Below are positions 11,658 through 17,332 of a stretch of 17,332 bases of DNA, piece after piece. Origin of the DNA: Spirochaetales bacterium (GTDB lineage: Bacteria; Spirochaetota; Spirochaetia; ARS1246); the NCBI GenBank assembly GCA_016930115.1, contig JAFGHN010000007.1, positions 1-17,332 of the forward strand. The letters run 5' to 3'. A program made the position numbers and the translations under genes. Under the pieces are notes generated by a model. It saw nothing but the letters and a program-made list of their open reading frames with translations. It was not told the DNA's origin and ran no database searches. The stretch's first letter is position 1, and the number at the start of each line of letters is the position of its first letter.

Positions 11658-11738
11658 TATTGCAGTATAGCCGGTCCCGGAAATTGTGGCAATCGTTTTT
11701 GACTCCGCTTGAGGACGTGCGTTACACTACAGGTATCT

Positions 11739-13070
11739 ATGAGTATTGAATTGCTGCGAAGCGCCTTCTTCTGGGGCTTGATCAGTGCGGTTTCGCTTCC
11801 GCTGGGAGCGTTGCTCGGGCTGCTGACCCGCCCTCCTCGCAAAGTGACGTCGGTGCTCATGGCTTTTGGCGCCGGCGCGCTGCTTTTTGCGCTGACCATT
11901 GAGCTTTTCTCTGAAAGCCTGCATCTGTCGCGCGAGTCAGGCAACAGCATCATCTATATTACAATAGCGGGTGCGCTGGCAGGCGGCCTGCTGTTTGACC
12001 TGCTCAACCAGCTCCTCAACAATCGCGGCGCCTTTCTGAGGAAGTTCGTTACGACAAGGAAGCACCTCGTCCGGATGAAGCGGAAAATGGCCCGCGCGCT
12101 CGTCAACGAATTGAGCCGGGTCAGGCTTCTTCAGTCGCTTCCCCCCGACGACATAGCAACGTTGATTCCCAATATGAAACGAGAGACCTTCGATGCAGGC
12201 GAAGTGATTTTCAGACAGGATGATCTCGGGTCAACTCTCTATTTCATCGTTTCCGGAGAGATCGAAATCCTGAGACGCGACGAGAGCGGGGATGAAAAAA
12301 CGGTCGCCGTTTTGTCCGATAATGACACCTTTGGAGAAATGGCGCTTCTCGGCAGCAGTCCACGGAATGCGACCGCCAGAGCCAAAACGCGAACGAACGT
12401 TTTGAAGGCTCTGCACAGCGATTTTGAGACGGCCCTTGCGCAATCGGACGCGCTCCGTGAATCGGCGCTGGTGCTGTTTCACCAACGCGCGGAGAATCTC
12501 TCGCAAAAGGCGAAGGACTACAGCGCCGAGGAGTGGGAGAGCAGGTGTTTGAAACGGCTGCAGCGTCTTTCAATCCCGGTTTCCGAGCAGGAAATCAACG
12601 AGGAATCGCAAAAAGCGATGCTGGGGAAAGGCGCGGCGATGGCGATCTGGCTTGGCATACTTCTCGACGGCATCCCTGAGTCCCTCATCATCGGGATCCT
12701 CTCGGCGAGCGTCACCGGTATCAGTCTGGCGTTTATCACCGGCGTTTTTCTGGCAAACCTCCCTGAAGCAATGTCAAGCGCCGTCGGCATGAAGAAAAGC
12801 GGTATGTCCTTCTCAACCATTCTCCTCATGTGGGGTTCTCTCTGTCTTATTACAGGCGCCGGCGCCGGTATCGGTGTTTTGCTGTTTCCGCCATCTACCG
12901 GAAAGTCGAGTTACATGCTCTTGAGCGGTATCGAGGGACTTGCCGCGGGAGCGATGCTGACGATGATCGCCGAGACGATGCTGCCTGAAGCCTTTGAGCA
13001 GGGCGGGGCAATCGTCGGATTTTCGACTCTGCTTGGCTTCCTTACCGCTCTTCTTGTCAAAGTGTTTTGA
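11739..13070 (+). CDS. ZIP-family (ZupT-like) metal transporter with a cyclic-nucleotide-binding (CAP-effector-type) domain inserted in the TM3-TM4 cytoplasmic loop
   Basis: The N-terminal 3 TMs align in pattern with ZupT TM1-3 (compare E. coli ZupT [21 protein letters not shown] with MAFGAGALLFALTIELFSESL here). The C-terminal 5 TMs carry ZIP xxPE motifs: LLDGIPESL and LANLPEAM (versus HNFPEG / HNIPEG), and ETMLPEAF (versus DELMP). Between them, residues about 145-265 form a complete cNMP-binding domain with an intact phosphate-binding cassette, FGEMALLGSSPRNATARAKT. Start chosen at ATG 11739; the track's TTG at 11709 is less likely. Confidence 0.75.
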   Translation: MSIELLRSAFFWGLISAVSLPLGALLGLLTRPPRKVTSVLMAFGAGALLFALTIELFSESLHLSRESGNSIIYITIAGALAGGLLFDLLNQLLNNRGAFLRKFVTTRKHLVRMKRKMARALVNELSRVRLLQSLPPDDIATLIPNMKRETFDAGEVIFRQDDLGSTLYFIVSGEIEILRRDESGDEKTVAVLSDNDTFGEMALLGSSPRNATARAKTRTNVLKALHSDFETALAQSDALRESALVLFHQRAENLSQKAKDYSAEEWESRCLKRLQRLSIPVSEQEINEESQKAMLGKGAAMAIWLGILLDGIPESLIIGILSASVTGISLAFITGVFLANLPEAMSSAVGMKKSGMSFSTILLMWGSLCLITGAGAGIGVLLFPPSTGKSSYMLLSGIEGLAAGAMLTMIAETMLPEAFEQGGAIVGFSTLLGFLTALLVKVF

Positions 13071-14766: not shown

Positions 14767-14798
14767 ATATATAAACGATTGCGCATGTGTTTATATAT
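14767..14798. promoter_or_regulatory. inverted repeat ATATATAAAC-N12-GTTTATATAT, candidate ArsR/SmtB operator in the divergent promoter region
   Basis: Perfect 10-bp arms read directly, 16-47 nt upstream of the arsR-like start. Overlaps AT-rich -10-like hexamers for the minus-strand gene. Confidence 0.45.
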
Positions 14799-14932
14799 TA
14801 GTCATTTTGTTGCGTCACATCAAGTATTTCGAGCACGCGGAAAATGATGTATTCTTCTGAGAGATCGCGGCTATAATGACCGTTCAGACAGTATTGCACG
14901 CGTCGGAAAAGAGGCGTGTCCAGGAGGGCAAA

Positions 14933-15721
14933 GTGAGAATAGAGGATCTTCAGCCCGGACAGGAAAATTCATACTGCATGTGTCTCGAAGAATGGTCTCG
15001 CGAGATGAAGGACGCCGGGGATAAGAAGCGATATTGGTACGAAGAAGCCAAACCGAAGGGATTGCGGGTGAAGCTTGCCGTCGATGAAAACGGGGCGGCC
15101 GCAGGAATGATACATTATATGCCGATCGAGCAGACTCATGTGAAAGGGAGGGATCTGTACTTCATCTACTGCATCTGGGTCCACGGCTACAAGGAAGGGC
15201 AGGGCAACTACCAGAAACAAGGCATCGGGACGGCGCTGCTCGAGGCCGCCGAGCAGGATGCGCGGGAGCTTGGCGCAAAGGGCATTGCCGCCTGGGGCGT
15301 GGCACTCCCTTTTTTCATGCGGGCGAGCTGGTTCAGGAAAAAAGGATACACTCGCTGCGACCGCGACGGAATTGGCGTGCTGCTTTGGAAATCGTTTTCA
15401 GAAGATGCGGTTGCGCCCGAATGGAACAGGCAAAAGAAGAAACCCCGGGGTGAGCCGGGACAGGTGACGGTGCACTCCTTTGTAAACGGCTGGTGTCCGG
15501 GGCAGAATCTGGTGCACGAACGGGCAAAGAGGGCCGCCGCAGAAATTGGCCCGCCGGTCGTTTTCAAGGAATATGAGACCGGCAAGCCGGAAATCTTTAA
15601 CGAGTGGCATATCGTCGATGCACTCTACGTTAACGGCCGGCAAGTGCGAACCGGTCCGCCGCCGTCGTATGACAAGATTAGAAGGACGATACAGAAGGCG
15701 GTGAAAAGATTACGTTTATGA
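14933..15721 (+). CDS. GNAT-family N-acetyltransferase with C-terminal YoaP-like / thioredoxin-like domain
   Basis: GNAT acetyl-CoA motif QKQGIGTALLEAAEQDARELGAKGIAAWGV. C-terminal about 90 aa (VTVHSFVNGWCPGQ...ALYVNGRQVRTGPP) resembles a thioredoxin-like fold with a single Cys. Start taken at GTG 14933, which has a strong AGGAGG RBS (14922-14927). The track start ATG 14876 is in-frame upstream but lacks an RBS and is overlapped by a TATAAT hexamer (14872-14877). Confidence 0.7.
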   Translation: MRIEDLQPGQENSYCMCLEEWSREMKDAGDKKRYWYEEAKPKGLRVKLAVDENGAAAGMIHYMPIEQTHVKGRDLYFIYCIWVHGYKEGQGNYQKQGIGTALLEAAEQDARELGAKGIAAWGVALPFFMRASWFRKKGYTRCDRDGIGVLLWKSFSEDAVAPEWNRQKKKPRGEPGQVTVHSFVNGWCPGQNLVHERAKRAAAEIGPPVVFKEYETGKPEIFNEWHIVDALYVNGRQVRTGPPPSYDKIRRTIQKAVKRLRL

Positions 15722-16521
15722 AGCTCTACCAAGTCGATTCTTTTACCACAACTCCCTTCGCAGGAAATCCGGCGGGCGTCTGTATCGTCGAAAAAGAGGT
15801 ATCCGATGAATGGATGCAGCGGCTGGCGGCCGAGATGAACCTTTCGGAAACGGCGTTTGTCCAAAGGCAGCAAAACGAACAGACGTACAGCCTGCGGTGG
15901 TTTACCCCGCTTACCGAGGTTGATCTGTGCGGCCACGCCACTCTCGCATCGGCACATATCCTCTACACGGAAGGAATGCACGATCCGTCAGACACGATCA
16001 GTTTTACAACAAAAAGCGGCGTGCTGACCGCCGCTTCGAGAGGTCATCGGATAGAATTGGATTTCCCGCTCAGGAACGTGGAGAAAGTTGGGGAGTATCA
16101 CGAATTGTCCGCGGCTCTCGGCGCGAGTCCGGTCGGCGTCTATCGGCACGTCAGTGACGAAGAGACTCTCTATCTCTTCGAGCTTTCGACTCCGGATGAG
16201 GTGAAAAGACTCAAACCGAATTTCGGCGTGATGGCCGGGACAAACGCCCAGGCCGTCATCGTTACGAGCAACGGCGGGGCCACCGGATACGACTTTGTAT
16301 CGAGGTTTTTCGCTCCCGCTATCGGCATCAACGAGGACCCGGTGACCGGGTACGCCCACTGCTACCTGGCGCCTTTCTGGGCGGCGCGTTACGGGAAGAT
16401 GAAACTCACCGGATACCAGGCTTCTCCAAGAGGCGGAGTGGTTTTCTGCTCGACCAAGGGTGACAGGGTAATTCTTGGCGGTAATGCGGTAACGGTGTTC
16501 CGTGCCGAATTGTTGGCGTGA
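15718..16521 (+). CDS. PhzF-family isomerase (phenazine biosynthesis PhzF-like / YHI9-type)
   Basis: 267 aa. Characteristic N-terminal pattern (KLYQVDSFTTTPFAGNPAGVC...NLSETAFV) including the catalytic-Glu-containing SETAF motif. ATGA overlap with the upstream GNAT gene. Confidence 0.85.
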   Translation: MKLYQVDSFTTTPFAGNPAGVCIVEKEVSDEWMQRLAAEMNLSETAFVQRQQNEQTYSLRWFTPLTEVDLCGHATLASAHILYTEGMHDPSDTISFTTKSGVLTAASRGHRIELDFPLRNVEKVGEYHELSAALGASPVGVYRHVSDEETLYLFELSTPDEVKRLKPNFGVMAGTNAQAVIVTSNGGATGYDFVSRFFAPAIGINEDPVTGYAHCYLAPFWAARYGKMKLTGYQASPRGGVVFCSTKGDRVILGGNAVTVFRAELLA

Positions 16522-16544
16522 GAGTCACAGAAAGGGAATGCGAA

Positions 16545-16561
16545 GGCCGGATTCTCCGGCC
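16545..16561 (+). other. perfect 7-bp stem / 3-nt loop hairpin GGCCGGA-TTC-TCCGGCC between phzF-like and the downstream gene; no U-tract
   Basis: Read directly. Overlaps the region just upstream of the RBS (GGTGGAGG, 16563-16570) of the next gene. It could modulate translation or stabilise the transcript; it is not a canonical terminator. Confidence 0.25.
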
Positions 16562-16579
16562 GGTGGAGGCAGAACGGTG

Positions 16580-17332
16580 ATGTTTTACGGTGTGCGAAAA
16601 ATCTGGAACACCGCTCTTTTTCAAGGCATGAACCAGAAGAAACGCTACTTCGAAGGGTGGTACTTCAAACATGTGTCTCCTCAAGGAAGGGTGTACGCGG
16701 TCATCCCCGGTGTAGCTCTGAGCGCCAATGGGAAGAATAAACTAGCCTTCATTCAGACTATCGACGGAAATACCGTGGAGACCCATTACATCACCTTCCC
16801 GTTTCAGGACTTCTCATACAGAAAGGACCGGTTTGCGGTTGTGATTGGGGACAATCGCTTCTCTGCGGAAGGTATCGAAGTTGATGTACATGACGGTGAT
16901 TTCAAGTTCAAGGCGGAATGTTCCTACGAGGGCGTTCGCGGTCTGCCGTTTTCGCTTGTCAATCCAAACGCCATGGGCTGGTATTCTTTCGTACCGTTCA
17001 TGGAGTGCTATCACGGCCTGGTGAGCATGGATCACGTTGTGAGCGGATATATTGAGATAAACGATGAGCGCATCGGATTCGAACGCGGACGGGGATACAT
17101 AGAAAAGGACTGGGGAAGATCTTTCCCGAGCTCCTGGGTCTGGATGCAGACAAACTCGTTTCGTAACAGCGGCGATTCGTTCATGCTTTCAATCGCGAGG
17201 ATCCCCTGGTTAGGGAGTCATTTCGTGGGTTTCCTCGGGTTTGTAGCCGTATCAGGCACAGTGCGCAAGTTCGCGACGTACACCGGAGCCCGGATCACCG
17301 GGTTGGACATCACTGAGGATTCGGTCCACGCA
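16580..17332 (+). CDS. tocopherol-cyclase-family protein (Tocopherol_cycl-like), N-terminal 251 codons; continues beyond window
   Basis: Frame open from ATG 16580 (GGTGGAGG RBS) to the window end. It contains the two hallmark motifs of the VTE1/tocopherol cyclase family as I recall them: FEGWYFK near the N-terminus, and EKDWGRSFPSSWVWMQTN (compare plant VTE1 EKNWGGGFPRKWFWVQCN). Confidence 0.6.
   Translation, partial: MFYGVRKIWNTALFQGMNQKKRYFEGWYFKHVSPQGRVYAVIPGVALSANGKNKLAFIQTIDGNTVETHYITFPFQDFSYRKDRFAVVIGDNRFSAEGIEVDVHDGDFKFKAECSYEGVRGLPFSLVNPNAMGWYSFVPFMECYHGLVSMDHVVSGYIEINDERIGFERGRGYIEKDWGRSFPSSWVWMQTNSFRNSGDSFMLSIARIPWLGSHFVGFLGFVAVSGTVRKFATYTGARITGLDITEDSVHA

Follow-up and report, generated by a model that had tools for sequence, protein, structure and literature searches.

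A string of acetyltransferase, PhzF-like, and tocopherol-cyclase-like genes in a Spirochaetales contig as a probable clade-specific arrangement of three widespread enzyme families

The window analysed here spans the whole of a 17,332-bp contig from a metagenome-assembled genome labelled 'Spirochaetales bacterium'. Its last 2.5 kb carry three tightly packed open reading frames (ORFs) on the same strand, which encode a GNAT N-acetyltransferase, a PhzF-family isomerase, and a tocopherol-cyclase-like protein (hereafter, the cyclase-like protein). A first-pass annotation made from the sequence alone had proposed that these genes form a short pathway that isomerises, cyclises, and acetylates a small molecule. 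Our analysis gave a clear negative on this three-gene pathway; the trio is a clade-specific arrangement. The reading that we favour, with a probability of roughly 0.55, is that the genes, which share one orientation and are probably co-transcribed, form a string specific to their lineage and represent three independently widespread, functionally unassigned enzyme families, rather than a conserved three-step pathway. Each of the three proteins adds a new member to a known family. The function of the tocopherol-cyclase-like family would become testable with a reliable genomic partner, which the window does not supply. What was gained is a model-based hypothesis on the fold, by which the cyclase-like protein may be a CrtC/AttH-type cofactor-free alkene-protonating enzyme, together with weak recurring partners of its gene, namely PhzF, an MFS transporter, glutathione peroxidase, and an NmrA/DUF2867 protein.

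Gene neighbourhoods in diverse genomes

A profile of the cyclase-like family was scanned against one genome per GTDB species and matched at over 590 loci. Of these, the 80 best (40-51% identity, many phyla) were used with 6 kb on each side. The GNAT sample consisted of 80 metagenome loci with 55-63% identity. Neighbouring genes were searched by tblastn with the window proteins, and the neighbouring ORFs were clustered all against all. None of the 80 cyclase loci had a GNAT homologue nearby, and PhzF was present at two of them (L024 and L026), both of which are from Bacteroidales and mutually related (their PhzFs are 82% identical). Among the clustered neighbour ORFs, no family recurred at more than a few of the loci. 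In the reverse search, neither PhzF, cyclase, ArsR, nor CopZ was found near the GNAT at any of the 80 metagenome loci, and no neighbour was conserved. Two PhzF homologues on long contigs (55-57% identity to the window PhzF) had no cyclase gene in their neighbourhood. The first-pass annotation had named conserved synteny as a test of its pathway, and the pathway mostly failed it.

The two Bacteroidales loci bear on a second reading, in which the PhzF-like and cyclase-like proteins make up a genuine module of two enzymes, together with the MFS transporter encoded downstream, and the GNAT is a passenger. In such a module, PhzF would shift a double bond, the beta-barrel cyclase-like protein would protonate and then cyclise or hydrate the substrate, and the MFS protein would import the substrate or export the product. 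PhzF lies upstream of the cyclase gene on the same strand in two independent lineages, Spirochaetales (the window and its relatives L007/L176) and Bacteroidales (PhzF-MFS-cyclase in L024 and PhzF-cyclase in L026), and 475 kb of control loci contained no PhzF match. Furthermore, the cyclase-MFS pair is kept in the relatives L005 and L007/L176, whose MFS proteins are 83% identical. However, the Bacteroidales PhzFs are 41-43% identical to the window PhzF and thus less similar to it than the unlinked ones, so that the cyclase-linked PhzFs are not a special orthologous subfamily. The MFS protein of L024 is only generically similar to that of the spirochaetes (25-30% over part of the length), and MFS was dropped as a cross-phylum marker. 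In addition, the closest relatives of the window cyclase (L178, L002, and L005) lack PhzF, and none of the PhzF relatives that were examined from other phyla has a cyclase gene next to it. Taken together with the count of two related loci in 80, we consider this module unlikely.

Close Spirochaetales relatives

The trio was seen in one narrow Spirochaetales clade with general synteny, and the expectation that it would be conserved across distant genomes was not borne out. The relatives L007, L008, and L176 show identities to the window of 72% for the GNAT, 65% for PhzF, and 68-69% for the cyclase-like protein; in L007/L176, the genes form the tight string TM1506-NHL-AKR-GNAT-PhzF-cyclase-MFS-FecR. 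L170 and the contig of P0127 share the wider synteny of the window, including the ABC transporter, ZIP-cNMP, ~340-aa protein, arsP/HMA, and arsR genes. Because the whole neighbourhood is syntenic, conservation of the trio within the clade does not go beyond the background synteny.

Other close relatives carry the cyclase gene without GNAT or PhzF, namely L178 (77% identity), L002-4 (73%), and L005 (71%). In L178 and L002-4, the gene is flanked by a gene for ~250 aa and by an NmrA/DUF2867 gene that is convergent with it, and L005 has cyclase-MFS only. Likewise, the GNAT of L169 (71%) occurs without PhzF, between sugar-type oxidoreductase genes. In L002, an ArsR orthologue (80%) is located 3 kb upstream of the cyclase gene, and a GGDEF/EAL gene occupies the place where GNAT-PhzF would be. 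Judged from gene order, this stretch of the chromosome is rearrangement-prone and not a fixed cassette.

The first-pass annotation had proposed a search for prenyltransferase or methyltransferase genes downstream of the trio; in the relatives L007/L176 and L005, an MFS transporter gene follows the cyclase gene instead. By analogy with these sister contigs, an MFS gene probably lies just past the end of the window contig. As a separate observation, the cyclase of L176/L007 is called as 279 aa, and the conserved N-terminus (RKIWETAIFQGAGKKRRYFEGWYLKH) is found in an upstream frame of L176 (4040-4165), so that the gene either begins earlier than called or contains a frameshift.

The extended string, (TM1506-NHL-AKR-)GNAT-PhzF-cyclase-MFS, could also be a real lineage-specific pathway that makes or detoxifies a lipophilic metabolite in this clade. 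The PhzF-like protein would reposition a double bond, the beta-barrel protein would cyclise or hydrate the substrate by acid catalysis, the GNAT would acetylate an amine, and the MFS transporter would move the compound across the membrane. The order of isomerisation, cyclisation, acetylation, and transport is chemically sensible, and what points to it is the adjacency of the genes. We regard such a pathway as quite unlikely; if true, it would be the first functional handle on a bacterial and archaeal family of more than 7,000 members.

Several points weigh against a string of functionally unrelated genes. The trio persists in L007/L176 at 65-72% amino-acid identity, and a 3,356-bp JGI contig probably carries it as well (P0124, P0245, and P0011, assigned to one contig only because its length and source match). 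Junctions such as the 4-nt overlap and the gap of 55-58 nt are typical of a real operon, and genes that share an operon often have linked functions. In the Bacteroidales lineage of L024 and L026, PhzF is again placed directly upstream of the cyclase gene, as an independent recurrence, and two such cases in 80 loci compare with ~0.05-0.3 expected by chance (a rough estimate with no formal test). Every sister contig has arsR divergent from the first gene of the GNAT-PhzF string. Finally, the synteny sample covers ±6 kb around 80 + 80 loci.

Structure of the gene string

The features of the window region are listed in Table 1. The annotation of a three-gene operon stands with respect to the three same-strand ORFs, the ATGA overlap, and the spacer with a hairpin and a ribosome-binding site; its start is the part that does not hold. 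The GNAT ORF is open over 14876-15721 from ATG 14876. However, the NCBI model and ~3,000 homologues have 260-262 aa with an N-terminus corresponding to the residue of GTG 14933, and an AGGAGG sequence is located at 14922-14927, 5 nt before this codon. Since the homologue lengths and AGGAGG point to GTG 14933, the start at ATG 14876 is ~57 nt too early; GTG 14933 is probably the true start, and the longer ORF is probably not used.

The ATG of PhzF lies inside the stop of the GNAT gene (ATGA at 15718-21). The spacer between PhzF and the cyclase gene has 55-58 nt, and its 7-bp GC hairpin has no T-run; no terminator was called on the plus strand. The cyclase-like ORF begins at GTG 16577 or ATG 16580, corresponds to NCBI JW852_00290 (partial), and is free of stops and frameshifts up to the contig end after residue 251/252. 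No sigma-70-like promoter was found on the plus strand, a scan of the intergenic regions gave no Rfam family, and the base composition of the window showed no foreign-island signal. The only record of the exact PhzF protein was a 1.4-kb Logan contig, and there was none of the exact GNAT ORF.

In a predicted RNA fold at 16517-16589 on the plus strand (z = -2.7), the final part of the PhzF ORF with its UGA is base-paired to the region of the GUG/AUG start of the cyclase gene. The fold, which L176 does not conserve, could couple translation between these two genes. A riboswitch or attenuator in the spacer was considered and dropped, as the hairpin is not conserved in L176 and matches no Rfam family.

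Table 1 Features in and around the three-gene string of the window.
Feature	Position	Strand	Remarks
CopZ-like HMA domain protein, 75 aa	14172..14399	-	Downstream of arsR; PF00403 63 bits
ArsR/SmtB-family metalloregulator, 114 aa	14407..14751	-	Divergent from GNAT gene; HTH_5 61 bits
Perfect inverted repeat, candidate ArsR operator	14767..14798	.	ATATATAAAC-N12-GTTTATATAT
GNAT N-acetyltransferase (~1-155) with monothiol thioredoxin-like domain (~175-262), from the probable start	14933..15721	+	
PhzF-family isomerase, 267 aa	15718..16521	+	PF02567 219 bits, full length
Intergenic GC hairpin (16545-16561) and GGAGG (16565-16569)	16545..16569	+	
Tocopherol-cyclase-family (PF14249) protein, first ~252 of ~330 residues	16577..17332	+	

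GNAT with a thioredoxin-like domain

The GNAT matched Acetyltransf_1 (PF00583) with 39 bits (cut-off, 20.7), and the Q/RxxGxG/A motif that binds the pyrophosphate of acetyl-CoA is present as QxxGxG, invariant across the homologues. For the last ~90 residues, the prediction is a beta-alpha-beta-alpha-beta-beta-alpha order, and an invariant WCPxQN occupies the position of the thioredoxin active site (CxxC). This predicted topology and the placement of WCPxQN support the description of the C-terminal domain as thioredoxin-like, in agreement with the first-pass annotation. Its further label, YoaP-like, was not supported: PF14268 gave no match at E<=10 with either the whole protein or the isolated C-terminal 93 aa, and a literature search on 'YoaP' returned nothing relevant. 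The YoaP-type GNAT of B. subtilis has the same two-domain layout of an N-terminal GNAT and a small C-terminal domain, whereas the C-terminal domain of the window protein is a monothiol thioredoxin-like one with the invariant WCPxQN, in which PF14268 is undetected.

The protein would transfer acetyl from acetyl-CoA to an amine, and the fused monothiol domain probably binds or gates the substrate. The GNAT-thioredoxin-like family has no curated family entry and no conserved neighbours. It is unusually conserved (~60% identity across phyla, more than 3,000 clusters), and C17, C80, H84, and C188 are invariant in it, which suggests a metal or redox site.

PhzF-family isomerase

The PF02567 match of the second protein extends over profile positions 1-280 of 281, and TIGR00654 matched with 130 bits (cut-off, 76). 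By BLASTP, the protein is 31% identical to the PhzF of P. fluorescens, for which we used a reference sequence 100% identical to PDB 1t6k. Glu45, His74, and Asp208 of the latter align with E44, H73, and D201 of the window protein, and Ser213 is replaced by Tyr. These results bear out the first-pass annotation of a PhzF-type isomerase. The catalytic role of the PhzF glutamate has been described (PMC5958127), and the window protein would act in the same manner by a glutamate-mediated proton shift, namely a double-bond or allylic isomerisation.

The best PDB matches were 1s7j (E. faecalis, E 1e-54) and 4dun (C. difficile, E 1e-50), both of which are structural-genomics entries with no assigned function. 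The closest known system is PhzF with its uncharacterised relatives, which are these two, YddE (E. coli), and YHI9 (yeast); the likeness consists of the full-length PF02567 match and the conserved equivalents of the three PhzF residues. Compared with YddE, it is under the equivalog cut-off (121 vs 386 bits). It also differs from the P. fluorescens PhzF in its low identity, the Ser213 replacement, and the absence of phz genes nearby; the window contains no phzA-G type cluster with PhzD or PhzE.

ArsR regulator and metal control

The divergent metal sensor in the first-pass annotation was confirmed: the ArsR protein matched NF033788 with 92.9 bits (cut-off, 55) in addition to HTH_5. Its C-terminal DNHIGAILNLGLEHVEE, as read from the sequence, fits the pattern DxHx10HxxE, which we take to be the alpha5 metal site of SmtB/CzrA. 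The downstream HMA protein has a GMSCDHC motif and matched NF047957 with 72 bits, under the 85-bit cut-off. The unit thus resembles SmtB/CzrA-type sensors in the NF033788 match, the alpha5-type motif, the palindrome before its own gene, and the downstream HMA gene. It differs from them in that the ArsP-HMA permease partner usual in relatives is absent from the window, and position is all that links it to the GNAT string.

In the sister contigs, the gene after arsR encodes a 433-aa fusion of an ArsP_1 permease and HMA, of which the window keeps the 75-aa HMA ORF only; the comparison, made with L170 (3895-5196) and with the JGI contig that carries P0127, suggests loss of the permease part. Between arsR and the GNAT gene, the sister contigs have either TM1506 alone or TM1506, NHL, and AKR. 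The simplest reading of this gene order is that the arsR-GNAT adjacency in the window arose by loss of the intervening genes. The candidate operator, a perfect 10-N12-10 palindrome, is 16 nt from the arsR start and ~135 nt from GTG 14933. It had no match in any of the fetched loci, and L170 has a different palindrome (TGAACATATGTTCA) in the equivalent position before arsR. Most likely, arsR regulates its own unit of arsR and metal-handling gene, here arsR-HMA. The first-pass annotation had suggested metal-sensor control of the operon as well; we found nothing that supports ArsR control of the GNAT string, and the one to three genes between the two in the sister contigs, together with the pairing of arsR with an ArsP/HMA permease, argue against it.

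These results also bear on the pathway in its full original form, in which the GNAT, PhzF, and the cyclase-like protein isomerise, cyclise, and N-acetylate an aromatic or prenylated molecule under a Zn/Cd-type ArsR. Consistent with it are the tight packing with junctions of the translational-coupling style, the conservation of the trio in L007/L176, the location of the candidate operator in the shared 180-nt intergenic region, and the divergent arsR in three sister contigs. Furthermore, the related loci L172 (5001-8439) and L174 (5001-8687) have PhzF (55-57% identity) followed by a ~150-aa gene, a Dabb gene, a different GNAT of 163 aa, and a DsbA-type thioredoxin-fold gene, a layout that loosely echoes the pairing of GNAT-thioredoxin and PhzF in the window. 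Against this stand the counts of 0/80 for the GNAT with partners in either direction, the GNAT without partners in L169, the genes between arsR and the GNAT, the distance of the operator from GTG 14933, and the plus strand with no promoter found. In addition, the conservation of the GNAT across phyla without conserved neighbours suggests a self-contained, housekeeping-type role. We judge this pathway quite unlikely.

A further metal-related gene of the window (11709-13070, plus strand) encodes a ZIP-family metal transporter with an inserted or fused cyclic-nucleotide-binding domain (PF02535 and PF00027), which is kept in a sister contig.

Family, fold, and possible chemistry of the cyclase-like protein

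The partial window protein scored 63.9 bits against PF14249 (Tocopherol_cycl; cut-off, 26.6) and the full-length homologue P0005 scored 70.6 bits. The profile was aligned only in part, at positions 144-213 for the window protein and 145-335 for P0005. FEGWYFK and YIEKDWGRSFPSSWVWMQTNSF are both present in the window protein, with the layout YIEKDWG..FP..WVWMQTN; both do not vary across the family, and for YIEKDWGRSFPSSWVWMQTNSF this was seen in 23 homologues. The assignment of the partial ORF to the tocopherol-cyclase family, as first annotated, therefore holds. Szymanska and co-workers (2016, PMC4963081) described YxEK(N/D)WG and FPxxWxWxQxNxF in tocopherol cyclases and in look-alikes of heterotrophic bacteria. 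Beyond this note of their existence, we found no functional assignment for the homologues of heterotrophic bacteria in the literature searched, as the first-pass annotation had stated. The bacterial and archaeal family is strongly conserved and, clustered at 90% identity, comprises over 7,000 clusters. Many of its hosts are strict anaerobes or methanogens, for example Clostridium argentinense, Alkaliphilus, Methanobacterium, and Thermoplasmatota. The Bacteroidota members P0053, P0072, P0084, P0103, and P0119 have an N-terminal hydrophobic, signal-peptide-like extension that the window protein lacks; judging from these sequences, some members of the family may act outside the cytoplasm.

The cyclase-like protein was modelled as a two-barrel, all-beta protein of the CrtC/AttH/Diels-Alderase type. 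A search of PDB sequences with the profile of the family gave no match at E<=1, and the fold comparison alone was informative. The fold group includes the carotenoid 1,2-hydratase CrtC, AttH, kievitone hydratase, 25-phosphosteroid lyase, and the fungal, decalin-forming Diels-Alderases CghA and Fsa2, to which the identity is 11-13% only; all are cofactor-free enzymes acting on lipophilic alkenes. In CrtC, a set of Asp, His, Tyr, and Trp was proposed to protonate an isolated C=C bond (PMC4717167). By analogy, we infer that the invariant acidic motif YIEKDWG may play a CrtC-like protonation role. If YIEKDWG is the protonating motif, the enzyme would cyclise or hydrate a lipophilic olefin: the model-based double beta-barrel would protonate an isolated C=C bond of the lipophilic substrate without a cofactor, and the resulting cation would be captured by a hydroxyl group or water.

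The likeness to the tocopherol cyclases VTE1, SXD1, and slr1737 of Synechocystis consists of a PF14249 score above gathering, YxEK(N/D)WG, FPxxWxWxQxNxF, and the N-terminal FEGWYFK; the length of ~330 aa corresponds to the short bacterial form. It differs from these enzymes in the lack of a tocopherol-pathway context, in its hosts, which are mostly anaerobes including archaea, and in the partial Pfam match. No UbiA-type or homogentisate prenyltransferase and no quinol methyltransferase is encoded in the window. Among the close relatives with listed gene calls (L002, L005, L007/L176, and L178), no prenyltransferase or methyltransferase gene adjoins the cyclase gene; a methyltransferase gene ~7 kb from it in L002 is not suggestive. 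Homogentisate formation needs O2 and is hence unexpected in anaerobes. That the third gene encodes a true tocopherol or chromanol cyclase making a vitamin-E-like antioxidant would agree with the Pfam score, with both published motifs, and with the glutathione peroxidase and NmrA-like/DUF2867 reductase-type neighbours in several phyla, which would fit lipid antioxidants, but it is very unlikely because no prenyltransferase context was found and the family occurs widely in methanogens and other strict anaerobes, and the profile is covered in part only.

Other recurring neighbours of the cyclase-like gene

In several Bacteroidales (L024 5986-10127, L026 5995-10396; also L052, L043, and L049), the cyclase-like gene immediately precedes trpE-trpG-trpD and shares their strand, and in L024 and L026 PhzF comes just before it. 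The link of the cyclase-like gene to chorismate metabolism may be only lineage synteny. Loci of Spirochaetes, Ignavibacteria, and Bacteroidales (L002 4807-6267, L178 3211-4674, L023 6980-8407, and L027 1609-3033) have, as a direct neighbour of the cyclase-like gene, a gene for a ~480-aa protein with NmrA-like NAD(P)-binding and DUF2867 domains, which did not occur in the control loci. Similarly, glutathione peroxidase, also absent from the 475 kb of control loci, is encoded adjoining or within two genes of the cyclase-like gene in three to four independent lineages of Spirochaetota and Bacteroidales (L025 7036-7527, L031 7115-7606, L052 4895-5446, L055 3016-3528, and L002 6908-7474). These glutathione peroxidase neighbours could indicate that the family has a role related to lipid peroxides or antioxidants.

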